Positions 10,236 to 64,000 of a stretch of 64,000 nt of DNA are shown piece after piece. The translations under genes were made by a program, and so were the position numbers. The stretch lies in NCBI RefSeq assembly GCF_964355755.1, contig NC_092675.1:24338912-24402911 (forward strand). The letters are read 5' to 3'. This stretch comes from Antedon mediterranea. Taxonomy: Eukaryota; Animalia; Echinodermata. The notes beneath the pieces were generated by a model, which was not told the DNA's origin, searched no databases, and saw nothing but the letters and a program-made list of their open reading frames with translations. How positions within the stretch are numbered: the first letter of the stretch is position 1; the number at the start of each line of letters is the position of its first letter.

Positions 10236-10688
10236 TAATTAATCTGGGAATACATAATGTTAATGTTTATAATATAATAAATGTATAAATTTAATAATAT
10301 TGACAGTTTTAACTGATATTGCCAGCAGAAGTCAATATTACTGAGTATATTAAATTAATCTGAGCATACATATTTTAATGTTTATAATACAATAAATGTA
10401 TAAAATTAATAATTAATATTGACAGTTTTAACTGATATTGACAGCAGAAGTCAATATTACTGAGTATATTAAATTAATCTGAGTATACACATGTTAATGT
10501 TTGTAATCTAATAAATGTATATAATTGATAATATTGAAAGTTTTAACTGATATTGGCAGAAGTAAATATTACTAAATATTTTTAATCAATCTAACCATAC
10601 ACATTTTAATGTTTGTAATATAGGCCTAATAAATGTATAAAATGAATAATATTGACAGTTTTAACTGATATTGGCAGAAGTAAATATT
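10236..10688. repeat. AT-rich tandem repeat, unit about 115-120 bp, about 3.7 copies, directly downstream of the predicted stop codon
   Basis: aatattga(c/a)agttttaactgatattg recurs at about 10296, 10416, 10531 and 10649. Confidence 0.85.
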
Positions 10689-13088: not shown

Positions 13089-13162
<74 letters not shown>

Positions 13163-13208
13163 CTTTCCTATATATATATATATATATATATATATTGCCT
13201 AATGTGTT

Positions 13209-13285
<77 letters not shown>

Positions 13286-40200: not shown

Positions 40201-43200
40201 ACCGAGAGTTGAGGACAATCAGCTGTTTCAACAAAAGCATGGTTAATTTCCAAAAACCAAAATATTTAGACGATTACACAATTAAAAGCCAGAATAGTTC
40301 TATTATGTCTATAATAGGTAACGTATGCCAATGTTATATTACCGTAACAACTAGGGAACTGAAACACACCGCCGATCAGACAAGGACTAACTGGCATACC
40401 AACTAAAGTATATCCGTTAAAACAGCTATATGTTATGTTTTCTCCAATTCCAAAATTACATTTCGTTCCTTCTATAATAACAGCCTCAGGTATTATTGAA
40501 ATATCCCACTTGCAAAATCCTTTGATATAAAATACATAAAATTGTTATTTCTACTGTACAGAACATCACATAATCTTTCAAGGCATGTATATTTTCATTC
40601 TGTGTTTGTATTTTTAGCCTACTTTGATGGCTACAACATTATAACATAATGCATCGGTTGCTCATGTGGATAAATGATGATAAATGTACTCCGCCGAATA
40701 ATAAATGGTTTATTTTGAAAAAGAATATTATGCAATAATATTAGATAAAATGAATTAGAAAAATACAAAACCTGAGCAAAACGACTCTTCTTCTTCGGCA
40801 TTGTTATAGCAATCGAAATAGTTGTCACAAACATAACACTCTTGAATACATTTTGAACTGTTAGGACAACGGAACTCGGTTGAAAGGCAAGACCCTATAA
40901 TTGTGTAACGAATTAGGAACACATGTTAGATATCTCAATTATCTGGGAATGTTCAACTCACTAAAGATAGCAGAGTATTGGGTTTTAAAACAAATATATG
41001 TAGTATTTAACATACCACAATTTTCTTCTGATTCATCAAACGCGTCTTGACAATCCGGTAAGCCATCACACTTGAATCTGTCTGCTATACACTTTTCTGG
41101 ACAGCGGAAGAACCCCACGTTACAGGAAGCACCTGTTAGTAAAGAAGGCAGTGACAACAGTATTTACGTATACCATTTTAGTAAAAGAAAAGGCCTCACT
41201 TTTTTAGGCGAATTGCGGTTACAATTTATGCTAATGCCGCACTGTGATGTAATTTACCTTTACATGCATATCTCAAAATTAGATATATAACTGCCCTGTA
41301 TATATACATGTTGAACTATTACTATACTGTACATTCATGCAAAACACCAATTTTTGGGGGTTATTTTATTCGTAAAAAGATTAATTACATTTGTTTCTAA
41401 ATAATTATTTGTTTTTAGTCTTCAAGAAAACCATTGTACAAATCAAATTATTTTCACGTTATGATTTGGTGAATAAACGTATTTGTAGCTTGATAAAAGA
41501 GCTTATCTATAAAAACCTACTTTTGTTTAATTGACCCCTAAACGCGTTTATTTTTTCACTTTAAAAGTGTTTCAAATAATAAATGTCATCTTCATCATAA
41601 ACATGTTGTGTGATATATGTTCAATTCAAGTGATATGTACCCTCACTTACCAGTTATTTCAATTGTAAAGGAACACACAGAAATCAGTCCTTCGTCATCA
41701 ATTGCAACGTACATTAATGTATATTCGCCTTCTTCAAATGAATCTCCAGAGACATACATATTACTGGCGAAGGGTATGACAGTAACACCGCCAGCATTGT
41801 CTGTAGCGATTGCATCATTCCATGTAATAACAATGCTATTCGTGTTAATAGCCAGCATTGTATTAATATTACTTGGACATGTTATTCTTGGGGGTTCCAT
41901 ATCTAAAATAAAAATGATATATATTTATATTATTATGTACATTCTTTGTGATCTACGTAAAGATCATAATACACAAAAATCAAATAATAATTTTAACCGT
42001 TTATTAATTCATATTTTTGCTTTGATCAATATATAGAATATATAACAGCTGATTCTCGTATGGTGTTTTTTTTTTCTACCGAGCAAAACATCGTGCACTA
42101 TCGTTGGTACTGGGCCATAATGGACCATCATTCCTACGTAACCCTAATCCTCTAAATAATTTCTCACATTATGAAAATAAATATACAACCAGTAAAATAA
42201 ATAAGAACATGAATATCAATTAAACATACAGTTACTAAACTGTTCTTTTTTTTTTTCTCCTTTTCATTTCTCCAAAAAGAAAAAAACATGGAATGATGAC
42301 GTAACAAATATGACTAGCAAATTGTGCAACTACATATTTACATATAAATACATATTTATACAGGATTACACAATCAGGTAAAAGAAAAACCTGTTTTATA
42401 TTGTGGTCCTGTCAGCATCCACTACATAACAGTAGTCAACATCAACAAGTTCGGATGAGCTGAGGCGGCTAATTATAGTGAATGAATTAGATCTAATATC
42501 CATTTCAATAGTTTGTTTTTCAAAATACACTTACTAAACTGTGTACAATTTGGGACGCCATAGTTACATAGCTTAATAATGTAAATTGTGTTTAACATGT
42601 ATTATTTTAAAAGGAAATACACTATGTATTTACTAAATATATAGGCCTGATGTCGTTGAATCACCATCTTAAACTTTCTTCATGGATCACCGGGTTTGAC
42701 TAAAAACTAAGATTGCGTAAGCGCAGATTCGCAGTCACCGGTGATGATCAAATTTGCATAAGAAAGAAGGACCGACACAAAGTTGATACGTTGATTCCAA
42801 CCAAAAGGAATAAACGGTCGATTCCTATCTCTTGGATTGTGTCAGATGTAATGCTATAATTCTTACAAACGAAACAGGTATAGAAAATGTAGGTTACCTG
42901 ATAAATTCGTTAGTAAACATTTAACTATGAATAAAATATACCTGCGATGGTAATGTAGTAAACACAGGATGCATGTCGCCCCAAACTGTCTTGTGCTGTA
43001 TATGACACGTTGTGTTGGCCGATTGGAAATTTAGTTTCTTCTGGAATAACATTTACATAAAAGTCACCATAAGCTCCACTGATAGTGGGCTCATCCAATT
43101 CAACAATTGCATAGTTTAACCCTACTCCAGTTGGAAGCGTGACGTCTGCTGGACATTCAATGACAAGTAGCACTAGTAATTTAAAATCAAACATAATGTA

Positions 43201-46200
43201 TTATTATTATTTATATTTTTATTATTATTATTGTTAATTATAAAGTAAAATTTTAACCTAAACATGACCAATTTCAAATATATTTGAGGGTAAAATAATT
43301 GAAATACTGATTAACTTCTAATTAAATGAGATAGTCACAACTTACACAGGTAAATACAAATATAAAATCTTATTTACAAATTATAGAAATGGTTACTGAA
43401 GAATTAACTGTAATAACATATGAAGGTACTTACAAGGGGAATTTGTTGTCGGAACAGCTACAGTGGATGAACTAATACATTCGAGTAAAACGTCAAAACA
43501 ATCATTTTCAGAACAGCTACCAGGTGAACTAATCGTAACAGTTTTACTAATTAGCGTATCATCAAAGCAAACTGCTGATACATTCACAGTCTCGCCAACA
43601 GGAACCTCAGCACAAATACGTCCCTTGTCATTTGTCATGTACATGGTCACAGAGTCAGATTTCGAAATACTAAAGTAAAATTGTAGGCACGTTTAATACA
43701 GTAATCTAATCAACTTTAATAATCAGTATTATAAAAATAGAAATAGTGCGTTGGGGAGGTGTAACTTGTTAATTTGCTTGCCTTCCAATCCCAAGGTATA
43801 AGGTTCAATCCGGACATAGTGAAAGTGTTGTAACTCACGACTCTCTATATTAAGCCTTAAAATGAGACTTAGTTTATAAGCACAATACATTATAAAATAG
43901 TTTATCCATCTTGTAACTGCCAAGTTGCTCGCTGTTGGATGCGTATTAAATAAAAAAAAAACTACAAATTAAAAACCGGTAAAAAATATAAGTAATACAT
44001 AAGAACACTTGAAATTTTCTAGTATCTCTAATTATTGTGCATTGTAAGCTGTAAATTGGAGGACAATACAAGAGAGACACACAAAATGCCATAGATTCTT
44101 GTCATTTCATTGGATGATCGTACAGTACATTGAACTCCTGCGTTATCATGATTTCGTTCGTTATAATGAGAGTAAAGTTTGGTTACTAGAGTACGTGTTT
44201 TCGTGAATTTCGTTATACGTGCGTGGTTTATAACTACAAAGCGAGCAACCACGCAGGACAAGAGACGGTTGGCTGATCGCATTCGAAAATCAACCAGACG
44301 TGTCCGCCGTCTATAAGTGTTCTGGTAGGCCTACCCATCTATATGATTTGGGCATTGGCCAGTCAGTCGTTAAAATTAGTATTAAACAAAATTGTTTTAT
44401 ATTCGTGTAATAGAACAAATAATTTCATTCGGTGAAAATGTCTTATATTCACCTAATGGAATTATTTGTATGGCTACCATTCCACTCATGGAAATTGACT
44501 ATTTAAAAAAAATATCAGATCATAATAGCTAGCAATGACAACACATCAATATAAAATACCAATACGGTAACGCATCGCGAACAGACCGATCAACGACACA
44601 CTATGAAAAGCATATATAAACGTTCTGCCACCAGAGATTGTTTATTTTTGCTATTAACTGTTCTACTCCGCGTCCGAAAATGGAGCGCTGACTTTTTGAA
44701 TGGTCAAGCTGTCCGACATGATTAAAAAAGTATTAGGCCTAATTGAAAACAAAATAGAACAGTAAGTTTTGAATTCTTGAAGAGCTTGAAAATATCTCAT
44801 ACAATGAAGCAGTCAATCATTAAAAGCATGAAATACAGTCATGCCGAACACACAACAATTACAAACTGTCGAAGATGAACATTACAATTTAAGCGAAAAA
44901 TGACAATAGAAAAAGATAACATAATAAACTAAAATGTCTTACGATATATTATGTCTTTCAATAGGAATATTACACTGGTCGTCACCACAAGTTTGAATAT
45001 GAACACATCCCATTGCATACGGTGTAGTAAATGATTCTGGTAATTGTGTTGTTTGTTCCCGACATTGGAGAATAAGAGCAACTTCGCTACAAGTTCCTAC
45101 AACACAATCACCGGTGGTTTCCGGAATGACTGTTGCATTAGCAATTGGTCCATCCTCACATAACGCAGAAATAGTAATTAATTCACCGACCGTAGCAGCA
45201 ACACATACAGTACCGTTAACATTAGTGGTATGCATTTCAATTATTCCTGATGACTTCTCCAACACGCTAAAACAAAACAGGTAAACAAACAATAGTAAAT
45301 GTAATAGAAAATAATATCATAAATGAAAATACGGCATCAATACTTAATTTCTATCAATTATGGAAGAATAACTTTGATTTGTTACCGAAACATATTATTT
45401 AAAACTTACGTTATGTTTGTAAAAATAACTGGTTCAAGACACTGGTCGTCAGCACAAGTTTGAATATGAACACATCCCATTGCATACGGTGTTGTAAATG
45501 TTTCTGGTAATTGTGTTGTTTGTTCCCGACATTGGAGAATAAGAGCAACTTCGTTACAAGTTCCTACGACACAATCACCGGTGGTTTCCGGAGTGACTGT
45601 TGCATTGGCAATTGATCCATCTTCACATAACGCAGAAACAGTAATTGATTCACCGACCGTAGCAGCAACACATACAGTACCGTTAACATTAGTGGTATGC
45701 ATTTCAATTATTCCTGATGAATTCTCCAACACGCTAAAACAAAACAGGTAAACAAACAATAGTAAATTTAACAGAAAATAATATCATCAATAAACATACA
45801 GCCTCAATACTTAATTTCCATAAAATATTGTAGAATAACTTTGATTTGTAATCAAACATATTATTTAAAACTTACGTTATGTTTGTAAAAATAACTGGTT
45901 CAAGACATTGGTCATCACCACAAGTTTGAATATGAACACATCCCATTGCATACGGTGTAGTAAATGATTCTGGTAATTGTGTTGTTTGTTCCCGACATTG
46001 GAGAATAAGAGCAACTTCACTACAAGTTCCTACCACACAATCACCGGTGGTTTCCGGAATGACTGATGCATTAGGAATTGAGCCGTCCTCACATAACGCA
46101 GAAATAGTAATTGATTCACCGACCGTAGCAGCAACACATACAGTACCGTTAACATTAGTGGTATGCATTTCAATTATTCCTGATGACTTCTCAGACACGC

Positions 46201-49200
46201 TAAAACAAAAAGTAAAGAAAATAATATCATCAATGAAAATACGGCATCAATACTTAATTTCTATCAATTATGGAAGAATAACTTTGATTTGTTACCGAAA
46301 CATATTATTTAAAACTTACGTTATGTTTGTAAAAATAACTGGTTCAAGACACTGGTGGTCAGCACAAATTTGAATATGAACACAACCCATTGCATACGGT
46401 GTAGTAAATGTTTCTGGTAATTGTGTTGTTTGTTCCCGACATTGGAGAATAAGAGCAACTTCGCTACAAGTTCCTACTTGACAATCACCGGTGGTTTCCG
46501 GAGTGACTGTTGCATTGGCAAATGATCCATCTTCACATAACGCAGAAACAGTAATTGATTCACCGACCGTAGCAGCAACACATACAGTACCGTTAACATT
46601 AGTGGAATGCATTTCAATTATTCCTGATGACTTCTCCAACACGCTAAAACAAAACAGGTAAACAAACAATAGTAAATTTAACAGAAAATAATATCATCAA
46701 TGAACATACAGCCTCAATACTTAATTTCCATAATATTTGGGAGAATAACTTTGATTTGTAACCAAACATATTATTTAAAACTTACGTTATGTTTGTAAAA
46801 ATAACTGGTTCAAGACATTGGTCATCACCACAAGTTTGAATATGAACACATCCCATTGCATACGGTGTAGTAAATGATTCTGGTAATTGTGTTGTTTGTT
46901 CCCGACATTGGAGAATAAGAGCAACTTCGCTACAAGTTCCTACCACACACTCACCGGTGGTTTCCGGAATGACAGTTGCATTAGCAATTGAGCCATCCTC
47001 ACATAATGCAGAAATAGTAATTAATTCACCGACCGTAGCAGCAACACATACAGTACCGTTAACATTAGTGGTATGCATTTCAATTATTCCTGATGACTTC
47101 TCCAACACGCTAAAACAAAACAGGTAAACAAACAATAGTAAATGTAATAGAAAATAATATCATCAATGAAAATACGGCATCAATACTAAATTTCTATAAA
47201 TTATGGAAGAATAACTTTGATTTGTTACCGAAACATATTATTTAAAACGTACGTTATGTTTGTAAAAATAACTGGTTCAAGACACTGGTCGTCAGCACAA
47301 GTTTGAATATGAACACAACCCATTGCATACGGTGTAGTAAATGTTTCTGGTAATTGTGTTGTTTGTTCCCGACATTGGAGAATAAGAGCAACTTCGCTAC
47401 AAGTTCCCAACACACAATCACCGGTGGTTTCCGGAATGACTGTTGCATTAGCAATTGAGCCATCCTCACATAACGCAGAAATAGTAATTGATTCACCGAC
47501 CGTAGCAGCAACACATACAGTACCGTTAACATTAGTGGTGTGCATTTCAATTATTCCTGATGACTTCTCCAACACGCTAAAACAAAACAGGTAAACAAAC
47601 AATAGTAAATTTAACAGAAAATAATATCATCAATGAACATACAGCCTCAATACTTAATTTCCATAAAATATGGGAGAATGACTTTGATTTGTAACCGAAC
47701 ATATTATTTAAAACTTACGTTATGTTGGTAAAAATAACTGGTTCGAGACATTCGTCATCACCACAAGTTTGAATATGAACACATCCCATTGCATACGGTG
47801 TAGTAAATGTTTCTGGTAATTGTGTTGTTTGTTCCCGACATTGGAGAATAAGAGCAACTTCGCTACAAGTTCCTACTTGACAATCACCGGTGGTTTCCGG
47901 AGTGACTGTTTCATTGGCAATTGATCCATCTTCACATAACGCAGAAACAGTAATTGATTCACCGACCGTAACAGCAACACATACAGTACCGTTAACATTA
48001 GTGGTATGCATTTCAATTATTCCTGATGACTTCTCCAACACGCTAAAACAAAACAGGTAAACAAACAATAGTAAATTTAACAGAAAATAATATCATCAAT
48101 GAACATACAGCCTCAATACTTAATTTCCATAAAATATGGGAGAATAACTTTGATATGTAACCAAACATAGTATCTAAAACTTACGTTATGTTTGTAAAAA
48201 TAACTGGTTCAAGACATTGGTCATCACCACAAGTTTGAATATGAACACATCCCATTGCATACGGTGTAGTAAATGATTCTGGTAATTGTGTTGTTTGTTC
48301 CCGACATTGGAGAATAAGAGCAACTTCGCTACAAGTTCCTACAACACAATTACCGGTGGTTTCCGGAGTGACTGTTGCATTGGCAATTGATCCGTCTTCA
48401 CATAACGCAGAAACAGTAATTGATTCACCGACCGTAGCAGCAACACATAAAGTACCGTTAACATTAGTGGTATGCATTTCAATTATTCCTGATGACTCCA
48501 ACACGCTAAAACAAAACAGGTAAACAAACAATAGTAAATTTAACAGAAAATAATATCATCAATGAACATACAGCCTCAATACTTAATTTCCATAAAATAT
48601 GGGAGAATAACTTTGATTTGTAACCAAACATATTATTTAAAACTTACGTTATGTTTGTAAAAATAACTGGTTCAAGACACTGGTCGTCAGCACAAGTTTG
48701 AATATGAACACAACCCATTGCATACGGTGTAGTAAATATTTCTGGTAATTGTGTTGTTTGTTCCCGACATTGGAGAATAAGAGCAACTTCGCTACAAGTT
48801 CCTACAACACAATCACCGGTGGTTTCCGGAGTGACTGTTGCATTGGCAATTGATCCATCTTCACATAACGCAGAAACAGTAATTGATTCACCGACCGTAG
48901 CAGCAACACATACAGTACCGTTAACATTAGTGGTATGCATTTCAATTATTCCTGATGACTTCTCCAACACGCTAAAACAAAACAGGTAAAGAAACAATAG
49001 TAAATTTAACAGAAAATAATATCATCAATGAACATACAGCCTCAATACTTAATTTCCATAAAATATGGGAGAATAACTTTGATTTGTAACCAAACATAGT
49101 ATTTAAAACTTACGTTATGTTTGTAAAAATAACTGGTTCAAGATATTGGTCATCACCACAAGTTTGAATATGAACACATCCCATTGCATACGGTGTAGTA

Positions 49201-52200
49201 AATGATTCTGGTAATTGTGTTGTTTGTTCCCGACATTGGAGAATAAGAGCAACTTCGCTACAAGTTCCTACAACACAATCACCGGTGGTTTCCGGAATGA
49301 CTGTTGCATTAGCAATTGAGCCATCCTCACATAACGCAGAAATAGTAATTGATTCACCGACCGTAGCAGCAAAACATACAGTACCGTTAACATTAGTGGT
49401 ATGCATTTCAATTATTCCTGATGACTTCTCCAACACGCTAAAACAAAACAGGTAAACAAACAATAGTAAATATAACAGAAAATAATATCATCAATGAACA
49501 TACAGCCTCAATACTTCATTTCCATGAAATATGAAAGAATAACTTTGGTTTGTAACCGAAACATGTTATTTAAAACTTACGTTATGTTTGAAATAATAAC
49601 TGGTTCAAGACACTGGTCGTCAGCACAAGTTTGAATATGAACACAACCCATTGCATACGGTGTAGTAAATATTTCTGGTAATTGTGTTGTTTGTTCCCGA
49701 CATTGGAGAATAAGAGCAACTTCGCTACAAGTTCCTACAACACAATCACCGGTGGTTTCCAGAGTGACTGTTGCATTGGCAATTGATCCATCTTCACATA
49801 ACGCAGAAACAGTAATTGATTCACCGACCGTAGCAGCAATACATACAGTACCGTTAACATTAGTGGTATGCATTTCAATTATTCCTGATGACTTCTCCAA
49901 CACGCTAAAACAAAACAGGTAAACAAACAATAGTAAATTTAACAGAAAATAATATCATCAATGAACATACAGCCTCAATACTTAATTTCCATAAAATATG
50001 GGAGAATAACTTTGATTTGTAACCAAACATATTATTTAAAACTTACGTTATGTTTGTAAAAATAACTGGTTCAAGACACTGGTCGTCAGCACAAGTTTGA
50101 ATATGAACACAACCCATTGCATACGGTGTAGTAAATATTTCTGGTAATTGTGTTGTTTGTTCCCGACATTGGAGAATAAGAGCAACTTCGCTACAAGTTT
50201 CTACAACACAATCACCGGTGGTTTCCGGAGTGACTGTTGCATTGGCAATTGATCCATCTTCACATAACGCAGAAACAGTAATTGATTCACCGACCGTAGC
50301 AGCAACACATACAGTACCGTTAACATTAGTGGTATGCATTTCAATTATTCCTGATGACTTCTCCAACACGCTAAAACAAAACAGGTAAAGAAACAATAGT
50401 AAATTTAACAGAAAATAATATCATCAATGAACATACAGCCTCAATACTTAATTTCCATAAAATATGGGAGAATAACTTTGATTTGTAACCAAACATAGTA
50501 TTTAAAACTTACGTTATGTTTGTAAAAATAACTGGTTCAAGATATTGGTCATCACCACAAGTTTGAATATGAACACATCCCATTGCATACGGTGTAGTAA
50601 ATGATTCTGGTAATTGTGTTGTTTGTTCCCGACATTGGAGAATAAGAGCAACTTCGCTACAAGTTCCTACAACACAATCACCGGTGGTTTCCGGAATGAC
50701 TGTTGCATTAGCAATTGAGCCATCCTCACATAACGCAGAAATAGTAATTGATTCACCGACCGTAGCAGCAAAACATACAGTACCGTTAACATTAGTGGTA
50801 TGCATTTCAATTATTCCTGATGACTTCTCCAACACGCTAAAACAAAACAGGTAAACAAACAATAGTAAATATAACAGAAAATAATATCATCAATGAACAT
50901 ACAGCCTCAATACTTCATTTCCATGAAATATGAAAGAATAACTTTGGTTTGTAACCGAAACATGTTATTTAAAACTTACGTTATGTTTGAAATAATAACT
51001 GGTTCAAGACACTGGTCGTCAGCACAAGTTTGAATATGAACACAACCCATTGCATACGGTGTAGTAAATATTTCTGGTAATTGTGTTGTTTGTTCCCGAC
51101 ATTGGAGAATAAGAGCAACTTCGCTACAAGTTCCTACAACACAATCACCGGTGGTTTCCGGAGTGACTGTTGCATTGGCAATTGATCCATCTTCACATAA
51201 CGCAGAAACAGTAATTGATTCACCGACCGTAGCAGCAATACATACAGTACCGTTAACATTAGTGGTATGCATTTCAATTATTCCTGATGACTTCTCCAAC
51301 ACGCTAAAACAAAACAGGTAAAGAAACAATAGTAAATTTAACAGAAAATAATATCATCAATGAACATACAGCCTCAATATTTAATTTCTATCAATTATGG
51401 AAGAATAACTTTGATTTGTTACCGAAACATATTATTTAAAACTTACGTTATGTTTGTATAAATAACTGGTTCAAGACACTGGTCGTCAGCACAAGTTTGA
51501 ATATGAACACAACCCATTGCATACGGTGTAGTAAATGTTTCTGGTAATTGTGTTGTTTGTTCCCGACATTGGAGAATAAGAGCAACTTCGCTACAAGTTC
51601 CTACTTGACAATCACCGGTAGTTTCCGGAGTTACTGTTGCATTGGCAATTGAGCCATCCTCACATAACGCAGAAATAGTAATTGATTCACCGACCGTAGC
51701 TGCAACACATACAGTACCGTTAACATTAGTGGTATGCATTTCGATTATTCCTGATGACTTCTCCAACACGCTAAAACAAAACAGGTAAACAAACAATAGT
51801 AAATGTAATACAAAATAATATCATCAATGAACATACAGCCTCAATACTTAATTTCCATAAAATATGGGAGAATAACTTTGATTTGTAACCAAACATATTA
51901 TTTAAAACTTACGTTATGTTTGTAAAAATAACTGGTTCAAGACATTGGTCATCACCACAAGTTTGAATATGAACACATCCCATTGCATACGGTGTAGTAA
52001 ATGATTCTGGTAATTGTGTTGTTTGTTCCCGACATTGGAGAATAAGAGCAACTTCGCTACAAGTTCCTACCACACAATCACCGGTAGTTTCCGGAATGAC
52101 TGTTGCATTAGCAATTGAGCCATCCTCACATAACGCAGAAATAGTAATTGATTCACCGACCGTAGCAGCAACACATATAGTACTGTTAACATTAGTGGTA

Positions 52201-55200
52201 TGCATATCAATTATTCCTGATGACTTCTCCAACACGCTAAAACAAAACAGGTAAACAAACAATAGTAAATTTAACAGAAAATAATATCAATGAACATACG
52301 GCATCAATACTTAATTCCCATAAAATATGGGAGAATAACTTTGGTTTATTATTTAAAACTTACCTTATGTTTGTAAAAATAACTGGTTCAAGACACTGGT
52401 CGTCAGCACAAGTTTGAATATGAACACAACCCATTACATACGGTGTAGTAAATATTTCTGGTAATTGTGTTGTTTGTTCCCGACATTGGAGAATAAGAGC
52501 AACTTCGCTACAAGTTCCTACTTGACAATCACCGGTGGTTTTTGGAGTTACTGTTGCATTGGCAATTGATCCATCTTCACATAACGCAGAAACAGTAATT
52601 GATTCACCGACCGTAGCAGCAACACATACAGTACCGTTAACATTAGTGGTATGCATTTCAATTATTCCTGATGACTTCTCCAACACGCTAAAACAAAACA
52701 GGTAAACAAACAATAGTAAATTTAACAGAAAATAATATCATCAATGAACATACAGCCTCAATACTTAATTTCCATAAAATATGGGAGAATAACTTTGGTT
52801 TGTAACCGAAACATATTATTGAAAACTTACGTTATGTTTGTAAAAATAACTGGTTCAAGACACTGGTCGTCAACACAAGTTTGAATATGAACACAACCCA
52901 TTGCATACGGTGTAGTAAATGTTTCTGGTAATTGTGTTGTTTGTTCCCGACATTGGAGAATAAGAGCAACTTCGCTACAAGTTCCTACTTGACAATCACC
53001 GGTAGTTTCCGGAGTGACTGTTGCATTGGCAATTGATCCATCTTCACATAACGCAGAAACAGTAATTGATTCACTGACCGTAGCAGCAACACATACAGTA
53101 CCGTTAACATTAGTGGTATGCATTTCAATTATTCCTGATGACTTCTCCCACACGCTAAAACAAAACAGGTAAACAAACAATAGTAAATGTAATAGAATAT
53201 AATATCATCAATGAACATACAGCCTCAATACTTAATTTCCCTAAAAAATGGGAGAATAACTTTGATTTGTAACCAAACATATTATTTAAAACTTACGTTA
53301 TGTTTGTAAAAATAATTGGTTCAAGACACTGGTCATCACCACAAGTTTGAAAATGAACACATCCCATTGCATACGGTGTAGTAAATGATTCTGGTAATTG
53401 TGTTGTTTGTTCCCGACATTGGAGAATAAGAGCAACTTCGCTACAAGTTCCTACGACACAGTCACCGGTGGTTTCCGGAGTGACTGTTGCATTGGCAATT
53501 GATCCATCTTCACATAACGCAGAAACAGTAATTGATTCACCGACCGTAGCAGCAACACATAAAGTACCGTTAACATTAGTGGTATGCATTTCAATTATTC
53601 CTGATGACTTCTCAGACACGCTAAAACAAAACAGGTAAACATACAACAGTAAATGTAATAGAAAATAATATCATCAATGAAAATACGGCATCAATACTTA
53701 ATTTTTATCAATTATGGAAGAATAACTTTGTTTTGTTACCTAAACATATTATTTAAAACTTACGTTATGTTTATAAAAATAACTGGTTCAAGACACTGGT
53801 CGTCAGCACAAGCTTGAATATGAACACAACCCATTGCATACGGTGTAGTAAATGTTTCTGGTAATTGTGTTGTTTGTTCCCGACATTGGAGAATAAGAGC
53901 AACTTCGCTACAAGTTCCTACCACACAATCACCGGTGGTGTCCGGAATGACTGTTGCATTAGCAATTGAGCCATCCTCACATAACGCAGAAATAGTAATT
54001 GATTCACCGACCGTAGCAGCAACACATACAGTACCGTTAACATTAGTGGTATGCATATCAATTATTCCTGATGACTTCTCCAACACGCTAAAACAAAACA
54101 GGTAAACAAACAATAGTAAATTTAACAGAAAATAATATCAATGAACATATGGCATCAATACTTAATTCCCATAAAATATGGGAGAATAACTTTGGTTTAT
54201 TATTTAAAACTTACGTTATGTTTGTAAAAATAACTGGTTCAAGACACTGGTCGTCAGCACAAGTTTGAATATGAACACAACCCATTACATACGGTGTAGT
54301 AAATATTTCTGGTAATTGTGTTGTTTGTTCCCGACATTGGAGAATAAGAGCAACTTCGCTACAAGTTCCTACAACACAATCACCGGTGGTCTCCGGAGTT
54401 ACTGTTGCATTGGCAATTGATCCATCTTCACATAACGCAGAAACAGTAATTGATTCATCGACCGTAGCAGCAACACATACAGTACCGTTAACATTAGTGG
54501 TATGCATTTCAATTATTCCTGATGACTTCTCCAACACGCTAAAACAAAACAGGTAAACAAACAATAGTAAATTTAACAGAAAATAATATCATCAATGAAC
54601 ATACAGCCTCAATACTTAAATTCCATAAAATATGGGAGAATAACTTTGGTTTGTAACCGAAACATATTATTTAAAACTTACGTTATGTTTGTAAAAATAA
54701 CTGGTTCAAGACACTGGTCGTCAGCACAAGTTTGAATATGAACACAACCCATTGCATACTGTGTAGTAAATGTTTCTGGTAATTGTGTTGTTTGTTCCCG
54801 ACATTGGAGAATAAGAGCAACTTCGCTACAAGTTCCTACTTGACAATCACCGGTGGTTTCCGGAGTGACTGTTGCATTGGCAGTTGATCCATCTTCACAT
54901 AACGCAGAAACAGTAATTGTTTCACCAACCGTAGCAGCAACACATACAGTACCATTAACATTAGTGGTATGCAATTCAATTATTCCTGATGAATTCTCCA
55001 ACACGCTAAAACAAAACAGGTAAACAAACAATAGTAAATTTAACAGAAAATAATATCATCAATGAACATACAGCCTCAATACTTAATTTCCATAAAATAT
55101 GGGAGAATAACTTTGGTTTGTAACCGAAACATATTATTTAAAACTTACGTTATGTTTGTAAAAATAACTGGTTCAAGACACTGGTCGTCAGCACAAGTTT

Positions 55201-58200
55201 GAATATGAACACAACCCATTGCATACGGTGTAGTAAATGTTTCTGGTAATTGTGTTGTTTGTTCCCGACATTGGAGAATAAGAGCAACTTCGCTACAAGT
55301 TCCTACAACACAATCACCGGTGGTCTCCGGAGTTACTGTTGCATTGGCAATTGATCCATCTTCACATAACGCAGAAACAGTAATTGATTCACCGACCGTA
55401 GCAGCAACACATACAGTACCGTTAACATTAGTGGTATGCATTTCAATTATTCCTGATGACTTCTCCAACACGCTAAAACAAAACAGGTAAACAAACAATA
55501 GTAAATTTAACAGAAAATAATATCATCAATGAACATACAGCCTCAATACTTAAATTCCATAAAATATGGGAGAATAACTTTGGTTTGTAACCGAAACATA
55601 TTATTTAAAACTTACGTTATGTTTGTAAAAATAACTGGTTCAAGACACTGGTCGTCAGCACAAGTTTGAATATGAACACAACCCATTGCATACTGTGTAG
55701 TAAATGTTTCTGGTAATTGTGTTGTTTGTTCCCGACATTGGAGAATAAGAGCAACTTCGCTACAAGTTCCTACTTGACAATCACCGGTGGTTTCCGGAGT
55801 GACTGTTGCATTGGCAGTTGATCCATCTTCACATAACGCAGAAACAGTAATTGTTTCACCAACCGTAGCAGCAACACATACAGTACCATTAACATTAGTG
55901 GTATGCAATTCAATTATTCCTGATGAATTCTCCAACACGCTAAAACAAAACAGGTAAACAAACAATAGTAAATTTAACAGAAATTAATATCATCAATGAA
56001 CATACAGCCTCAATACTTAATTTCCATAAAATATGGGAGAATAACTTTGGTTTGTAACCGAAACATATTATTTAAATCTTACGTTATGTTTGTAAAAATA
56101 ACTGGTTCAAGACACTGGTCGTCAGCACAAGTTTGAATATGAACACAACCCATTGCATACGGTGTAGTAAATATTTCTGGTAATTGTGTTGTTTGTTCCC
56201 GACATTGGAGAATAAGAGCAACTTCGCTACAAGTTCCTACTTGACAATCACCGGTGGTTTCCGGAGTGACTGTTGCATTGGCAATTGATCCATCTTCACA
56301 TAACGCAGAAACAGTAATTGTTTCACCAACCGTAGCAGCAACACATACAGTACCATTAACATTAGTGGTATGCATTTCAATTATTCCTGATGACTTCTCC
56401 AACACGCTAAAACAAAAGAGGTAAACAAACAATAGTAAATTTAACAGAAAATAATATCATCAATGAACATACAGCCTCAATACTTAATTTCCATAAAATA
56501 TGGGAGAATAACTCTGATTTGTAACCAAACATATTATTTAAAACTTACGTTATGTTTGTAAAAATAACTGGTTCAAGACATTGGTCATCACCACAAGTTT
56601 GAATATGAACACAACCCATTGCATACGGTGTAGTAAATGTTTCTGGTAATTGTGTTGTTTGTTCCCGACATTGGAGAATAAGAGCAACTTCGCTACAAGT
56701 TCCTACTTGACAATCACCGGTGGTTTCCAGAGTGACTGTTGCATTGGCAATTGATCCATCTTCACATAACGCAGAAACAGTAATTGATTCACCGATCGTA
56801 GCAGCAACACATACAGTACCGTTAACATTAGTGGTATGCATTTCAATTATTCCTGATGACTTCTCCAACACGCTAAAACAAAACAGGTAAACAAACAATA
56901 GTAAATTTAACAGAAAATAATATCATCAATGAACATACAGCCTCAATACTTAATTTCCATAAAATATGGGAGAATAACTCTGATTTGTAACCAAACATAT
57001 TATTTAAAACTTACGTTATGTTTGTAAAAATAACTGGTTCAAGACATTGGTCATCACCACAAGTTTGAATATGAACACAACCCATTGCATACGGTGTAGT
57101 AAATGTTTCTGGTAATTGTGTTGTTTGTTCCCGACATTGGAGAATAAGAGCAACTTCGCTACAAGTTCCTACTTGACAATCACCGGTGGTTTCCGGAGTG
57201 ACTGTTGCATTGGCAATTGATCCATCTTCACATAACGCAGAAACAGTAATTGATTCACCGACCGTAGCAGCAACACATACAGTACCGTTAACATTAGTGG
57301 TATGCATTTCAATTATTCCTGATGACTTCTCCAACACGCTAAAACAAAACAGGTAAACAAACAATAGTAAATGTAATAGAAAATAATATCATCAATGAAA
57401 ATACGGCATCAATACTTAATTTCTATCAATAATGGAAGAATAACTTTGATTTGTTACCGAAACATATTATTTAAAACTTACGTTATGTTTGTAAAAATAA
57501 CTGGTTCAAGACACTGGTCGTCAGCCCAAGTTTGAATATGAACACAACCCATTACATACGGTGTAGTAAATATTTCTGGTAATTGTGTTGTTTGTTCCCG
57601 ACATTGGAGAATAAGAGCAACTTCGCTACAAGTTCCTAAAACACAATCACTGGTGGTCTCCGGAGTCACTGTTGCATTGGCAATTGATCCATCTTCACAT
57701 AACGCAGAAACAGTAATTGATTCACCGACCGTAGCAGCAACACATACAGTACCGTTAACAATAGTGGTATGCATTTCAATTATTCCTGATGACTTCTCCA
57801 ACACGCTAAAACAAAACAGGTAAACAAACAATAGTAAATTTAACAGAAAATAATATCATCAATGAACATACACCCTCAATACTTCATTTCCATAAAATAT
57901 GGGAGAATAACTTTGATTTGTAACCAAACATATTATTTAAAACTTACGTTATGTTTGTAAAAATAACTGGTTCAAGACATTGGTCATCACCACAAGTTTG
58001 AATATGAACACATCCCATTGCATACGGTGTAGTAAATGATTCTGGTAATTGTGTTGTTTGTTCCCGACATTGGAGAATAAGAGCAACTTCGCTACAAGTT
58101 CCTACAACACAATCACCGATGGTTTCCGGAATGACTGTTGCATTAGCAATTGAGCCATCCTCACATAACGCAGAAATAGTAATTGATTCACCGACCGTAG

Positions 58201-61200
58201 CAGCAACACATACAGTACCGTTAACATTAGTGGTATGCATTTCAATTATTCCTGATGACTTCTCCAACACGCTAAAACAAAACAGGTAAACAAACAATAG
58301 TAAATGTAATAGAAAATAATATCATCAATGAAAATACGGCATCAATACTTAATTTCTATCAATAATGGAAGAATAACTTTGATTTGTTACCGAAACATAT
58401 TATTTAAAACTTACGTTATGTTTGTAAAAATAACTGGTTCAAGACACTGGTCGTCAGCACAAGTTTGAATATGAACACAACCCATTACATACGGTGTAGT
58501 AAATATTTCTGGTAATTGTGTTGTTTGTTCCCGACATTGCAGAATAAGAGCAACTTCGCTACAAGTTCCTAAAACACAATCACTGGTGGTCTCCGGAGTT
58601 ACTGTTGCATTGGCAATTGATCCATCTTCACATAACGCAGAAACAGTAATTGATTCACCGACCGTAGCAGCAACACATACAGTACCGTTAACATTAGTGG
58701 TATGCATTTCAATTATTCCTGATGACTTCTCCAACACGCTAAAACAAAACAGGTAAACAAACAATAGTAAATTTAACAGAAAACAATATCATCAATGAAC
58801 ATACAGCCTCAATACTTCATTTCCATAAAATATGGAAGAATAACTTTGGTTTGTAACCGAAACATATTATTAAAAACTTACGTTATGTTTGAAAAAATAA
58901 CTGGTTCAAGACACTGGTCGTCAGCACAAGTTTGAATATGAACACAACCCATTGCATACGGTGTAGTAAATGATTCTGGTAATTGTGTTGTTTGTTCCCG
59001 ACATTGGAGAATAAGAGCAACTTCGCTACAAATTCCTACAACACAATCACCGGTGGTTTCCGGAGTGACTGTTGCATTGGCAATTGATCCGTCTTCACAT
59101 AACGCAGAAACAGTAATTGATTCACCGACCGTAGCAGCAACACATACAGTACCGTTAACATTAGTGGTATGCATTTCAATTATTCCTGATGACTTCTCCA
59201 ACACGCTAAAACAAAACAGGTAAACAAACAATAGTAAATGTAATAGAAAATAATATCATCAATGAAAATACGGCATCAATACTTAATTTCTATCAATAAT
59301 GGAAGAATAACTTTGATTTGTTACCGAAACATATTATTTAAAACTTACGTTATGTTTGTAAAAATAACTGGTTCAAGACACTGGTCGTCAGCACAAGTTT
59401 GAATATGAACACAACCCATTACATACGGTGTAGTAAATATTTCTGGTAATTGTGTTGTTTGTTCCCGACATTGGAGAATAAGAGCAACTTCGCTACAAGT
59501 TCCTAAAACACAATCACTGGTGGTCTCCGGAGTTACTGTTGCATTGGCAATTGATCCATCTTCACATAACGCAGAAACAGTAATTGATTCACCGACCGTA
59601 GCAGCAACACATACAGTACCGTTAACATTAGTGGTATGCATTTCAATTATTCTTGATGACTTCTCCAACACGCTAAAACAAAACAGGTAAACAAACAATA
59701 GTAAATTTAACAGAAAATAATATCATCAATGAACATACAGCCTCAATACTTCATTTCCATAAAATATGGAAGAATAACTTTGGTTTGTAACCGAAACATA
59801 TTATTAAAAACTTACGTTATGTTTGAAAAAATAACTGGTTCAAGACACTGGTCGTCAGCACAAGTTTGAATATGAACACAACCCATTGCATACGGTGTAG
59901 TAAATATTACTGGTAATTGTGTTGTTTGTTCCCGACATTGGAGAATAAGAGCAACTTCGCTACAAGTTCCTACTTCACAATCACCGGTGGTTTCCGGAGT
60001 GACTGTTGCATTGGCAATTGATCCGTCTTCACATAACGCAGAAACAGTAATTGATTCACCGACCGTAGCAGCAACACATACAGTACCGTTAACATTAGTG
60101 GTATGCATTTCAATTATTCCTGATGACTCCAACACGCTAAAACAAAACAGGTAAACAAACAATAGTAAATTTAACAGAAAATAATATGATCAATGAACAT
60201 ACAGCCTCAATACTTAATTTCCATAAAATATGGGAGAATAACTTTGATTTGTAACCAAACATAGTATTTAAAACTTACGTTATGTTTGTAAAAATAACTG
60301 GTTCAAGACATTGGTCATCACCACAAGTTTGAATATGAACACATCCCATTGCATACGGTGTAGTAAATGATTCTGGTAATTGTGTTGTTTGTTCCCGACA
60401 TTGGAGAATAAGAGCAACTTCGCTACAAGTTCCTACAACACAATCACCGATGGTTTCCGGAATGACTGTTGCATTAGCAATTGAGCCATCCTCACATAAC
60501 GCAGAAATAATAATTGATTCACCGACCGTAGCAGCAACACATACAGTACCGTTAACATTAGTGGTATGCATTTCAATTATTCCTGATGACTTCTCCAACA
60601 CGCTAACACAAAACAGGTAAACAAACAATAGTAAATGTAATAGAAAATAATATCATCAATGAAAATACGGCATCAATACTTAATTTCTATCAATAATGGA
60701 AGAATAACTTTGATTTGTTACCGAAACATATTATTTAAAACTTACGTTATGTTTGTAAAAATAACTGGTTCAAGACACTGGTCGTCAGCACAAGTTTGAA
60801 TATGAACACAACCCATTACATACGGTGTAGTAAATATTTCTGGTAATTGTGTTGTTTGTTCCCGACATTGGAGAATAAGAGCAACTTCGCTACAAGGTCC
60901 TAAAACACAATCACTGGTGGTCTCCGGAGTTACTGTTGCATTGGCAATTGATACATCTTCACATAACGCAGAAACAGTAATTGATTCACCGACCGTAGCA
61001 GCAACACATACAGTACCGTTAACATTAGTGGTATGCATTTCAATTATTCCTGATGACTTCTCCAACACGCTAAAACAAAACAGGTAAACAAACAATAGTA
61101 AATTTAACAGAAAATAATATCATCAATGAACATACAGCCTCAATACTTAATTTCCATAAAATATGGGAGAATAACTTTGGTTTGTAACCGAAACATATTA

Positions 61201-63865
61201 TTTAAAACTTACGTTATGTTTGTAAAAATAACTGGTTCAAGACACTGGTCGTCAGCACAAGTTTGAATATGAACACAACCCATTGCATACGGTGTAGTAA
61301 ATATTTCTGGTAATTGTGTTGTTTGTTCCCGACATTGGAGAATAAGAGCAACTTTGCTACAAGTTCCTACTTGACAATCACCGGTGGTTTCCGGAGTGAC
61401 TGTTGCATTGGCAATTGATCCATCTTCACATAACGCAGAAACAGTAATTGATTCACCGATCGTAGCAGCAACACATACAGTACCGTTAACATTAGTGGTA
61501 TGCATTTCAATTATTCCTGATGACTTCTCCAACACGCTAAAACAAAACAGGTAAACAAACAATAGTAAATTTAACAGAAAATAATATCATCAATGAACAT
61601 ACAGCCTCAATACTTAATTTCCATAAAATATGGGAGAATAACTCTGATTTGTAACCAAACATATTATTTAAAACTTACGTTATGTTTGTAAAAATAACTG
61701 GTTCAAGACATTGGTCATCACCACAAGTTTGAATATGAACACAACCCATTGCAAACGGTGTAGTAAATGTTTCTGGTAATTGTGTTGTTTGTTCCCGACA
61801 TTGGAGAATAAGAGCAACTTCGCTACAAGTTCCTACTTGACAATCACCGGTGGTTTCCGGAGTGACTGTTGCATTGGCAATTGATCCATCTTCACATAAC
61901 GCAGAAACAGTAATTGATTCACCGACCGTAGCAGCAACACATACAGTACCGTTAACATTAGTGGTATGCATTTCAATTATTCCTGATGACTTCTCCAACA
62001 CGCTAAAACAAAACAGGTAAACAAACAATAGTAAATGTAATAGAAAATAATATCATCAATGAAAATACGGCATCAATACTTAATTTCTATCAATAATGGA
62101 AGAATAACTTTGATTTGTTACCGAAACATATTATTTAAAACTTACGTTATGTTTGTAAAAATAACTTTTTCAAGACACTGGTCGTCAGCACAAGTTTGAA
62201 TATGAACACAACCCATTACATACGGTGTAGTAAATATTTCTGGTAATTGTGTTGTTTGTTCCCGACATTGGAGAATAAGAGCAACTTCGCTACAAGTTCC
62301 TAAAACACAATCACTGGTGGTCTCCGGAGTTACTGTTGCATTGGCAATTGATCCATCTTCACATAACGCAGAAACAGTAATTGATTCACCGACCGTAGCA
62401 GCAACACATACAGTACCGTTAACATTAGTGGTATGCATTTCAATTATTCCTGATGACTTCTCCAACACGCTAAAACAAAACAGGTAAACAAACAATAGTA
62501 AATTTAACAGAAAATAATATCATCAATGAACATACAGCCTCAATACTTCATTTCCATAAAATATGGAAGAATAACTTTGGTTTGTAACCGAAACATATTA
62601 TTAAAAACTTACGTTATGTTTGAAAAAATAACTGGTTCAAGACACTGGTCGTCAGCACAAGTTTGAATATGAACACAACCCATTGCATACGGTGTAGTAA
62701 ATATTTCTGGTAATTGTGTTGTTTGTTCCCGACATTGGAGAATAAGAGCAACTTCGCTACAAGTTCCTACTTGACAATCACCGGTGGTTTCCGGAGTGAC
62801 TGTTGCATTGGCAATTGATCCGTCTTCACATAACACAGAAACAGTAATTGATTCACCGACCGTAGCAGCAACACATACAGTACCGTTAACATTAGTGGTA
62901 TGCATTTCAATTATTCCTGATGACTCCAACACGCTAAAACAAAACAGGTAAACAAACAATAGTAAATTTAACAGAAAATAATATCATTAATGAACATACA
63001 GCCTCAATACTTAATTTCCATAAAATATGGGAGAATAACTTTGATTTGTAACCGAACATATTATTTAAAACTTACGTTATGTTTGTAAAAATAACTGGTT
63101 CAAGACATTGGTCATCACCACAAGTTTGAATATGAACACATCCCATTGCATACGGTGTAGTAAATGTTTCTGGTAATTGTGTTGTTTGTTCCCGACATTG
63201 GAGAATAAGAGCAACTTCGCTACAAGTTCCTACTTGACAATCACCGGTGGTTTCCGGAGTGACTGTTGCATTGGCAAATGATCCATCTTCACATAACGCA
63301 GAAACAGTAATTGATTCACCGACCGTAGCAGCAACACATACAGTACCGTTAACATTAGTGGTATGCATTTCAATTATTCCTGATGACTTCTCCAACACGC
63401 TAAAACAAAACCGGTAAACAAACAATAGTAAATTTAACAGAAAATAATATGATCAATGAACATACAGCCTCAATACTTAATTTCCATAAAATATGGGAGA
63501 ATAACTTTGATTTTTAACCAAACATAGTATTTAAAACTTACGTTATGTTTGTAAAAATAACTGGTTCAAGACATTGGTCATCACCACAAGTTTGAATATG
63601 AACACATCCCATTGCATACGGTGTAGTAAATGATTCTGGTAATTGTGTTGTTTGTTCCCGACATTGGAGAATAAGAGCAACTTCGCTACAAGTTCCTACA
63701 ACACAATCACCGATGGTTTCCGGAATGACTGTTGCATTAGCAATTGAGCCATCCTCACATAACGCAGAAATAGTAATTGATTCACCGACCGTAGCAGCAA
63801 CACATACAGTACCGTTAACATTAGTGGTATGCATTTCAATTATTCCTGATGACTTCTCCAACACG
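10689..63865 (-). CDS. Giant type I membrane mucin-like protein (MUC4-like NIDO-AMOP-VWD core with EGF/SEA/HYR and an N-terminal 108-aa repeat array); 5'-partial, 87 exons in the window
   Basis: The hand-traced GT-AG exon chain has consistent intron phases from 63865 to the TAG at 10691-10689. Summed length is about 24.2 kb (about 8,070 codons). Individual exons are listed in the features below. Confidence 0.85.
11732..12018 (-). CDS. Transmembrane + juxtamembrane exon
   Basis: ttgcag|[30 protein letters not shown] followed by KRR (stop-transfer). The donor is either after PY (11732) or after TV (11747); both are phase 0. Confidence 0.85.
13089..13290. repeat. (TA)n microsatellite cluster in intron
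   Basis: Several long pure TA runs are directly visible. Confidence 0.97.
13366..13482 (-). CDS. Membrane-proximal EGF-like exon
   Basis: [39 protein letters not shown]; 6 Cys, 117 nt, phase 1-1. Confidence 0.9.
14189..15107 (-). CDS. SEA domain (exons 14980-15107 and 14189-14402)
   Basis: SFSVSITIT...[17 protein letters not shown]... followed by [16 protein letters not shown], matching the SEA F-x-x-G/S-I/V-I/V motif. Phases 1-0-1. Confidence 0.8.
15511..18999 (-). CDS. Single 3,489-nt mucin exon: Thr/Gln/Glu-rich 22-aa tandem repeats
   Basis: It lies within ORF 15452-18991. Acceptor tttttag at 19000-19001, donor gtaatt at 15510; phase 1-1; 1,163 codons. Confidence 0.92.
15720..18840. repeat. 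Coding minisatellite, 66-bp unit ([22 protein letters not shown]), roughly 47 copies, including four 54-bp variants near 17940-18140
   Basis: The periodicity is directly visible in both DNA and translation. Copy number is estimated from span divided by unit length. Confidence 0.95.
19375..19846 (-). CDS. Divergent SEA-like module (exons 19734-19846 and 19375-19615)
   Basis: About 118 aa, Cys-free, with an alpha/beta-like pattern. It has the same two-exon 1-0-1 phase layout as the SEA at 14189-15107, but no GS[IV][IV] motif. Confidence 0.55.
20348..28559 (-). CDS. Tandem of 18 EGF domains (mostly calcium-binding, D[IV][DN]EC) on 16 phase 1-1 exons
   Basis: Exons: 28419-28559, 27893-28015, 27572-27694, 27125-27364 (2 EGF), 25894-26016, 25674-25793, 25267-25389, 24653-24781 (non-Ca), 24211-24333, 23783-23902, 22983-23138, 22464-22580, 21850-22095 (2 EGF), 21376-21516, 20917-21039, 20348-20473. 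All lengths are multiples of 3 with GT-AG ends. Confidence 0.93.
25010..25030. repeat. (CA)n microsatellite
   Basis: Visible CA run. Confidence 0.9.
26340..26400 (-). repeat. Degenerate tRNA-derived (SINE-like) head in intron
   Basis: The minus strand has A-box-like TAGTTCAGTCG and B-box-like GGTTAGAATCC. No full cloverleaf is present. Confidence 0.4.
28893..30773 (-). CDS. Cadherin/Ig-like module plus two EGF-like domains (exons 30588-30773, 29399-29583, 28893-29073)
   Basis: DNFPPNIT...[14 protein letters not shown]...GVFTWTP...TLVAMDDQG, then CNCENGGVC...[12 protein letters not shown] and [14 protein letters not shown]. Phases 1-1-0-1. Confidence 0.82.
32283..34641 (-). CDS. von Willebrand factor type D domain and following region (exons 34454-34641, 33786-33873, 33257-33442, 32971-33084, 32283-32543)
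   Basis: [50 protein letters not shown] and [10 protein letters not shown] are MUC4/SUSD2-type VWD motifs. Confidence 0.92.
34126..34342. mobile_element. PIF/Harbinger-type (Tourist-like) MITE in a VWD intron
   Basis: Imperfect TIRs of about 36 bp (AGCTTGGTTCCCACT... / ...AGTGGGAACCACGCT), flanked on both sides by TTA. Confidence 0.75.
35194..36645 (-). CDS. End of NIDO plus AMOP domain (exons 36171-36645, 35642-35818, 35194-35313)
   Basis: [21 protein letters not shown]...[13 protein letters not shown] is the NIDO end. CMDW...CPC...[12 protein letters not shown]...PRYVCC...[19 protein letters not shown] is AMOP. Confidence 0.9.
37171..38287 (-). CDS. NIDO domain, N-terminal exons (38133-38287, 37692-37856, 37171-37362)
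   Basis: [36 protein letters not shown] and WMLVVTW are nidogen G1-like motifs. Confidence 0.9.
38570..39092 (+). mobile_element. 5'-truncated LINE 3' end in intron, antisense to the gene
   Basis: LPP...RSLR...[14 protein letters not shown] is a typical CR1/L2 ORF2 C-terminus. An AT-rich 3' UTR and an AATAAA/(AAAT)n tail follow at about 39060-39092. Confidence 0.7.
39148..39634 (-). CDS. Two calcium-binding EGF exons (39512-39634, 39148-39270)
   Basis: [29 protein letters not shown]... and [29 protein letters not shown]...; 123 nt each, phase 1-1. Confidence 0.92.
40049..40222 (-). CDS. Sushi/CCP domain exon
   Basis: CPQL...[18 protein letters not shown]...[15 protein letters not shown]; 4 Cys, 174 nt, phase 1-1. 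Confidence 0.85.
41016..41132 (-). CDS. LDL-receptor class A repeat exon
   Basis: [36 protein letters not shown]; 6 Cys plus the acidic DC.D..DE motif. Confidence 0.9.
41651..43172 (-). CDS. Two HYR (hyalin repeat) exons (42942-43172, 41651-41902)
   Basis: IECPADVT...[28 protein letters not shown] and [13 protein letters not shown]...WNDAIATDN...[19 protein letters not shown]. Phase 1-1. Confidence 0.88.
43434..43669 (-). CDS. Diverged terminal copy of the array repeat (phase 2 to phase 1 adaptor exon)
   Basis: [34 protein letters not shown]...GSC....C...ECISSST aligns with the array exon and keeps its first five Cys. Its 236 nt link the phase-2 array to the phase-1 HYR exon. Confidence 0.85.
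44943..63865 (-). CDS. Array of 41 near-identical 324-nt coding exons (108-aa, 8-Cys repeat) separated by introns of about 142 nt
   Basis: Each unit reads ttttag|C GTG TTG GAG...AAC ATA AC|gtaagt (phase 2-2). The first exon is 44943-45266 and the last complete exon is 63542-63865. No stop or frameshift occurs in any copy. Confidence 0.9.
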
Positions 63866-64000
63866 CTAAAACAAAACAGGTAAACAAACAATAGTAAATG
63901 TAATAGAAAATAATATCATCAATGAAAATACGGCATCAATACTTAATTTCTATCAATAATGGAAGAATAACTTTGATTTGTTACCGAAACATATTATTTA
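44971..64000. repeat. Tandem repeat, unit about 466-467 bp (exon+intron), 41 copies, running off the window edge
   Basis: ORF spacing is 466/467 bp, with exceptions of 444, 451 (x2) and 463-464 (x3). Confidence 0.98.

Follow-up and report, generated by a model that had tools for sequence, protein, structure and literature searches.

Near-identical tandem exons in a MUC4-like gene of the crinoid Antedon mediterranea

What kind of gene carries dozens of almost identical exons, each with its own intron, and what might it make? The question is raised by a stretch of 64,000 nucleotides (nt) from Antedon mediterranea (assembly GCF_964355755.1, contig NC_092675.1, positions 24,338,912 to 24,402,911), here called the window, in whose own numbering positions are given. 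An initial annotation, made from the letters of the window, had described an array of exon-intron cassettes and had suggested an undescribed system of surface recognition or adhesion. We propose, at a probability of roughly 0.6, that a crinoid gene with MUC4 domains contains, as this array, no fewer than 41 near-identical exons that are spliced together, likely encoding a long bead chain of predicted transthyretin-like domains on a probable membrane mucin, and that this chain would serve an epithelium as a long spacer that protects, lubricates or catches particles.

The exon array and its splicing

Tandem Repeats Finder returns a single array at 44972-64000 (period 467, 40.9 copies, 94% matches). 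Its coding strand, which the initial annotation had not given, is the minus strand, and the array is N-terminal to the remaining gene, which extends toward lower coordinates.

44943..63865, minus strand: 41 arrayed exons of 324 or 321 nt, all phase 2-2, and 40 introns of 120-143 nt, from repeat finding, splice-site and frame reading, a joint in sequencing run X1 and a fold model
63866..64000, minus strand: partial intron of the next upstream unit, from splice-site reading; the array goes on past the window, and the RefSeq fragment P0003 holds further units, none of them verbatim in the window

An AG acceptor and a GT donor are present in all 41 units, including the two donor-region variants singled out earlier (GTACGT at 47253 and a second at 52364). 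Exons are 324 nt long in 38 units and 321 nt in the three that start at 62933, 60136 and 48505; these three have one codon loss in common, and an in-frame loss of 3 nt is indeed the only exonic indel. The joined exons read through 4,424 amino acids (aa) without a stop in one frame, the other two frames holding 399 and 141 stops. All unit exons are phase 2-2, and the junction codon is ACC (Thr) at 39 of 40 junctions; the rule of a Thr at every junction, as first stated, fails at the 52364 donor variant, where the codon is AGC (Ser). The introns show four gap patterns overall: 1 nt in 17 introns, 13+3 nt in two and 23 nt in one, the longer gaps having been put, approximately rightly, at 15 and 22 nt. 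The last unit (45266-44943) has nine divergent final codons and its own donor. At the other end the window stops within the next intron, after 135 nt of it and some 8 nt before its donor, and the array continues beyond the window as had been predicted.

Five public sequencing runs cover the region; none is recorded as RNA, and they were analysed as assembled contigs. We treat X1 as RNA because its contigs are spliced. An X1 joint at 45266-45410 skips 143 nt, which is the predicted intron, with CT..AC ends and at a depth of 715.6; its depth in the DNA run X4 is 0. Transcripts spliced across units, on which the initial annotation had staked its reading, are thus found at the predicted sites. A 4,510-nt X1 contig (depth 17.4) begins in unit 41, where its match stops at 44943, and resumes at 43669, a junction that is in frame. 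It then runs on over 41902, 36645 and 32542, which are HYR, NIDO and C8 exons. Intron-containing contigs amount to about 7-18% at unit junctions.

The host gene and its repeat domain

The exons downstream of the array are the following.

43434..43669, minus strand: exon that supplies the rest of a last, divergent repeat domain (31% identity with the unit by alignment); spliced to unit 41 in the X1 contig
41643..43200, minus strand: two HYR exons (PF02494, E 1.6e-08 and 2.2e-16), with 41649-41902 on the X1 contig
38987..41163, minus strand: LDLa, Sushi, second Sushi-like (by eye, no Pfam match) and Ca-binding EGF exons, from Pfam and the reading of open reading frames (ORFs)
36016..38315, minus strand: NIDO exons (PF06119, E 9.9e-11 and 5.5e-05), with 36170-36645 on the X1 contig
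35625..35837, minus strand: partial AMOP exon (PF03782, E 0.0037, 17.8 bits against a cut-off of 25)
33138..34699, minus strand: VWD exons (PF00094, E 0.0012 on the first exon, below cut-off), with a GDPH motif at 34630-34619, read from codons
32283..32542, minus strand: MUC4-type C8-3 exon (PF23263, E 8.2e-13), on the X1 contig
20268..29073, minus strand: run of EGF and Ca-binding EGF exons; 11 ORFs match EGF-type families, two of them twice, and 27125-27364 lies on a second spliced X1 contig
15452..19027, minus strand: single large mucin-type exon of about 1,170 aa with a 22-aa repeat (Thr 28%, Glu 16%, Gln 15%), from repeat and ORF reading; probably linked to the exons upstream
11663..14465, minus strand: SEA-like exon (by eye), EGF exon, and a further exon in which basic residues follow a hydrophobic run, likely a transmembrane helix and tail; presumably linked to the same gene

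Judged by these domains, the host gene is a MUC4-like mucin. NIDO and C8 score 42.4 and 47.9 bits against cut-offs of 25. AMOP and then VWD come after NIDO, the order seen in MUC4-like mucins, although each single-exon score is below the Pfam cut-off; GDPH sits at the start of VWD, and 12 of the 17 ORFs scanned after VWD match EGF-type families. The available text on MUC4 gives this layout and defines the protein by GDPH and C8 (PMC8660890). The layout also matches the definition given, in the part of the account consulted, for cnidarian mucin4-like proteins, which carry extra N-terminal domains and sometimes SEA (PMC9080433). Human MUC4 and its invertebrate counterparts in Actinia (PMC9080433) and Acropora (B3EWY9; PMC3748352) are, as far as these sources describe them, alike in having NIDO-AMOP-VWD with GDPH, the MUC4-type C8, EGFs and a likely transmembrane end. 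In MUC4-like proteins, as here, a long tandem array is N-terminal to NIDO. There are differences too. Vertebrate MUC4 has a proline/threonine/serine (PTS) tandem repeat in that place, where Antedon has a predicted folded eight-Cys array, each repeat an exon-intron cassette; the Thr-rich region is near the membrane (C-terminal) instead; HYR, LDLa and Sushi exons are inserted; and about 9,000 aa or more are predicted.

That size depends on the 5' end, for which RefSeq offers fragments. Units 37 and 38 joined are identical to residues 4-219 of the Antedon mediterranea model P0002. P0001, the next RefSeq accession number, has a start that by eye is signal-like, a weak FAM171_N match (E 1.6e-05, below cut-off), an LDLa domain and five older repeats, which are 93% alike among themselves and 78% like the window units. 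Its sixth and last repeat matches those older repeats over its first 35 aa, after which 59 of 60 positions agree with a window unit. A loose end in X4 also reads as the older repeat type. We infer that P0001, the window and the fragments are one gene broken up by annotation. A head of about 420 aa, 540 aa of older repeats, the 4,424 aa of the window and a downstream part estimated at 3,500 aa or more put the floor at about 9,000 aa. Residues ~270-360 of P0001, after the FAM171_N-like region, look like a strongly diverged repeat domain (20% identity), which may be the source of the array. Pfam matches on P0001 and P0002 to EKR, Lamp2 and similar families were taken as repeat-summed noise. An Atlas search with P0001 residues 20-362 returned bacterial CarboxypepD_reg / FAM171_N clusters at 0.92-0.93, which do not count as evidence for gene transfer.

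Exon and domain boundaries do not coincide: the repeat domain begins roughly 85 residues after the start of one exon and extends roughly 67 residues into the following one, and is therefore interrupted by the intron. In each unit, the last five predicted strands of one eight-Cys domain are followed by a linker of about 17 aa with Thr and Pro, and then by the opening strands of the domain that comes next. A fold model built with a 9-row alignment is a seven-strand sandwich (predicted local distance difference test, pLDDT, 84.2; predicted template modelling score, pTM, 0.75). Compared with 48,161 chains, its best structural matches, which are transthyretin-like/CnaB domains, include 6hif_Y (Z 11.7), 3e8v_A (11.1), the pilin BcpA (10.4) and fly teneurin (9.4); the transthyretin-like domain of human carboxypeptidase D (5aq0_B) aligns over 81 residues at Z 10.2 and a root-mean-square deviation of 2.4. 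Foldseek finds the same fold class, with no E below 0.001. The repeat is accordingly predicted to be a transthyretin-like/CnaB (prealbumin-like) beta-sandwich. The ZP-N fold, that of the VERL repeat, is not among the 50 structural matches listed for the model. Without an alignment, a fold model of P0002 had pLDDT 54, and its Foldseek matches were meaningless.

Domains of this class occur in carboxypeptidase D, teneurin, Gram-positive pilins and the SdrD B repeats, and bacterial tandem copies serve as stalks. The predicted sandwich resembles them at Z 8-12 with identity of only 6-22%; unlike them, it has four probable disulfides, no Pfam family and relatives found only in crinoids, and we see no evidence of descent from bacterial proteins. 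Eight Cys are present in 38 of the 41 units, the array holds 125 N-glycan sequons in its 4,424 aa (about three per unit), and the linker is 39% Ser/Thr/Pro. With the unit as query, Pfam gave three weak matches, all below cut-off, and leads in an Atlas search were all under 0.9, several of them CarboxypepD_reg clusters. A profile search of PDB sequences gave no match.

We propose that the product is a type I membrane mucin, with a chain of disulfide-locked, glycosylated beads at its outer end and the FAM171_N-like head at its tip. Its 5' end would be P0001, contributing the signal-like N-terminus, head, LDLa and older sub-array, and its 3' end would run through the EGFs and the Thr-rich exon to the transmembrane helix. 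Each bead would have four disulfides, about three N-glycans and an O-glycosylated linker. Probable self-cleavage at GDPH, as thought for MUC4, would leave the chain either held on the membrane-anchored subunit or shed. Such a chain would form a tough spacer of some hundreds of nanometres in the epithelial glycocalyx or mucus.

It is also conceivable, though in our view unlikely, that the same gene, spliced in the same way, makes a matrix, adhesive or skeletal-matrix protein that is secreted or shed; in that case the Thr-rich and transmembrane exons may be left out or be part of another transcript. In the available text a mucin-4-like protein is a component of the Acropora skeletal matrix (PMC3748352), sea star footprint proteins contain HYR and EGF domains (PMC9382459), and no reads cover the link to the transmembrane exon. 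Yet NIDO and AMOP are nowhere mentioned in the footprint paper (PMC9382459), and the exons that come next on the same strand are EGF, Thr-rich, EGF and hydrophobic, arranged as in a membrane mucin.

Several features of the gene region deserve mention in their own right. The large Thr-rich exon is a second repeat array of the same probable gene (15721-18839), with a 66-nt period within one exon; a long antisense ORF at 15543-18845 lies over it, likely as a by-product. The C8 exon (32378-32497) and VWD exon (33308-33390) carry dense allele differences, at least 14 and 9 other letters among the entries listed, with roughly half the depth in X2 and X4 and the full depth in X1; they are possibly old divergent haplotypes. 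The NIDO exon at 36170-36645 has no such differences in X1. Very high-depth interspersed repeats lie in introns of the gene (~29900-30350, 31500-32100, 34100-34350 and 43500-44100) and none within the array introns. In the intron after unit 41, 40 nt (44878-44917) are missing from one X4 contig, probably an allele.

Homogenisation and selection within the array

A search among 1.84 billion cluster representatives gave eight matches, five of them crinoid (P0002 and four from Anneissia japonica). The other three, P0005, P0007 and P0010, were dropped as unrelated repeat proteins because their scores sum over many weak stretches. Homologue searches turned up Antedon and Anneissia proteins only; absence elsewhere is weak evidence because these searches were limited in length and word size. 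In Anneissia, P0009 has the order repeat-HYR-HYR-LDLa with the same junction as in Antedon, and the other Anneissia copies, whose contigs are about 1 kb long, differ in a longer, Thr-rich linker. Three of them begin where the Antedon exon begins, and these model ends suggest a shared intron position. Identity is 90-97% between those copies and 33-40% between them and Antedon; for a second Anneissia repeat type (P0004) it is 43% with Antedon. Overall, copies are about 93% alike within a species and 33-43% between the two.

Within the array, 326 of 630 site pairs fail the four-gamete test, the proportion rising with distance from 16% (<10 nt) to 68% (>160 nt). Units 28-30 nearly duplicate units 31-33, and units 18 and 20, and 29 and 32, are identical. 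This block duplication and the mosaic pattern together fit unequal crossing-over with gene conversion. The array evolves in concert, its exons and introns homogenised together as mosaics. Exchange between 467-bp units would change the length of the chain and spread new variants while keeping the frame, which survives because any in-register crossover between units rebuilds a whole domain.

Diversity statistics, computed on units 1-40, point to modest purifying selection: the reading frame is maintained and residues are laxly constrained. Diversity is 0.042 in exons against 0.060 in introns (0.072 in the intron core). Synonymous diversity (pS) is 0.067 and nonsynonymous diversity (pN) 0.033, a pN/pS of 0.49 (95% codon bootstrap 0.27-0.93). 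The 97 distinct exon variants include no stop, where about 4.1 would be expected (P ~0.016), and two distinct Cys-loss variants, where about 6.4 would be. One exonic indel event stands against the four intronic gap patterns, a contrast that is weak taken alone. The initial annotation's inference that the array is translated and under selection is supported by its splicing, by the kept frame and by pN/pS, and exons are less diverse than introns.

Given this pattern, one may picture a crinoid-wide giant MUC4-like receptor, in which a pilin-like chain of 50-80 disulfide-locked transthyretin-like domains forms a species-specific recognition surface (for gametes, settlement or microbes), rewritten in each species by concerted evolution and tuned in reach by copy number or skipping. 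We offer this as speculation and regard it as rather improbable.

Also improbable is a gamete-recognition receptor like VERL or EBR1, in which concerted evolution would spread a species-specific binding surface over many copies. The within- and between-species identities are what it would produce, and the same pattern is described, in the accessible text, for VERL (PMC2704960) and in the near-identical CUB-TSP1 exons of EBR1 (PMC13672419). All three are species-homogenised arrays of 100-150-aa domains in large extracellular proteins. Homogenisation is nevertheless the default for tandem arrays, also in silks and parasite mucins, and pN/pS gives no sign of positive selection among copies. The domain set, moreover, is that of MUC4 and neither EBR1's nor VERL's. 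As described, EBR1 has ADAMTS-like, CUB and TSP1 domains (PMC13672419); no Pfam match to any of these types was found in the 26 + 17 ORFs and P0001/P0002 that were scanned, a set that does not take in every short exon. The VERL array, in the portion of the source consulted, is intronless (PMC2704960), where Antedon has 40 introns. The parallel with VERL and EBR1 drawn at the outset thus holds for the mode of evolution and not beyond it.

Use of the units and place among known systems

How the units are used can be judged from read depth. In X1, depth is 812-883 on the exon body and 715.6 at the unit junction against 17.4 on the unique contig, giving ratios of 41, 47 and 51. From this ratio of 41-51, most units likely enter each mRNA and are joined constitutively. 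Alternative use of the units for many isoforms, mutually exclusive or with heavy skipping as in Dscam, is very unlikely. Symmetric phase 2-2 exons would permit any in-frame skipping, and 38 of the 41 exon sequences are distinct, but mutually exclusive use predicts no unit-to-unit joint and a depth ratio near 1, whereas such joints exist in this one run about 41-fold deeper than the unique downstream exons. The introns, too, are homogenised together with the exons, and isoforms would differ little because the units are 88-100% identical. A degree of skipping may nonetheless alter the length of the chain. The parallel with Dscam that had been proposed is therefore disfavoured. The idea that the array was created by the assembly, or is a non-coding satellite that happens to have an open frame, is largely refuted: the identical units could be assembler duplicates, but the DNA runs put depth on the unit at about 46-80 times single-copy depth (a rough figure, no copy number, from runs possibly of the assembly's own sample), which speaks against inflation, and 38 distinct exons, exact splicing in RNA and orthologous Anneissia repeats also stand against it.

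Weighing against the membrane bead chain that we propose are points on each of its parts. On expression, contig depth is a poor measure, as the tool itself warns; the RNA-like support is one run, its type guessed by the tool, of unrecorded tissue and as contigs, and contigs do not separate adjacent joining from skipping. Counting each variant once raises pN/pS to 0.70, i.e. weak selection on residues, and three units have lost a Cys. A shared fold on its own shows no function. In the host gene, AMOP (17.8 bits, cut-off 25) and VWD (19.6, cut-off 22.9) were scored as single exons, SEA has no Pfam match, the hydrophobic exon at 11663-12040 was judged by eye, and reads link neither the EGF run to the Thr-rich and transmembrane exons nor P0001 to the window.

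Elsewhere in the window, a 119-nt tandem repeat (four copies, 10230-10688) and a long TA microsatellite (13089-13290) lie near the 3' end of the gene. At 757-3925 (minus strand) there is a broken retrotransposon of the long interspersed nuclear element (LINE) type, several of whose ORFs match parts of an endonuclease (PF03372, PF14529) or a reverse transcriptase (PF00078), and a reverse transcriptase-like fragment was seen by eye near 4076-4566.

Arrays that copy exon and intron together are known from other genes. According to the sections consulted, exon 2 of Schistosoma SmPoMuc consists of exon-intron cassettes, up to 20 units of about 1 kb (PMC2576457), and the MaSp2 silk of Argiope of homogenised ones, the latter paper also citing Flag silk, SOWgp and tenascin-X (PMC9779670). 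SmPoMuc and MaSp2, with SOWgp and tenascin-X as cited, resemble the Antedon gene in joint copying of exons and introns, in higher-order blocks and in broken assembly and annotation (PMC2576457; PMC9779670). Compared with SmPoMuc as described there, the Antedon array has at least 41 copies and a 467-bp unit, and each unit codes for one complete folded domain whose limits are not those of the exon. Concertedly evolving exon-intron arrays being already known, what is new is the domain, its site where MUC4 has the PTS repeat, and the scale; titles and abstracts searched gave no published account of this gene or domain, subscription papers and supplements lying outside that search.

Of the system first suggested, a surface protein probably remains, and because the host gene is a MUC4-like mucin it is not an undescribed kind of system; nor do we find evidence for a new diversity-generating or splicing-diversity mechanism. 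The locus defines a domain family that lacks a Pfam model and has a confident predicted fold, and recovers a very large, probable surface protein of crinoids from at least three RefSeq 'uncharacterized' fragments. With sub-arrays of two kinds, units that are mosaics and an orthologous counterpart in another crinoid, it makes a compact case of exon and intron homogenisation. The gene would also be a MUC4-like mucin that uses folded beads where vertebrate MUC4 has PTS peptide.

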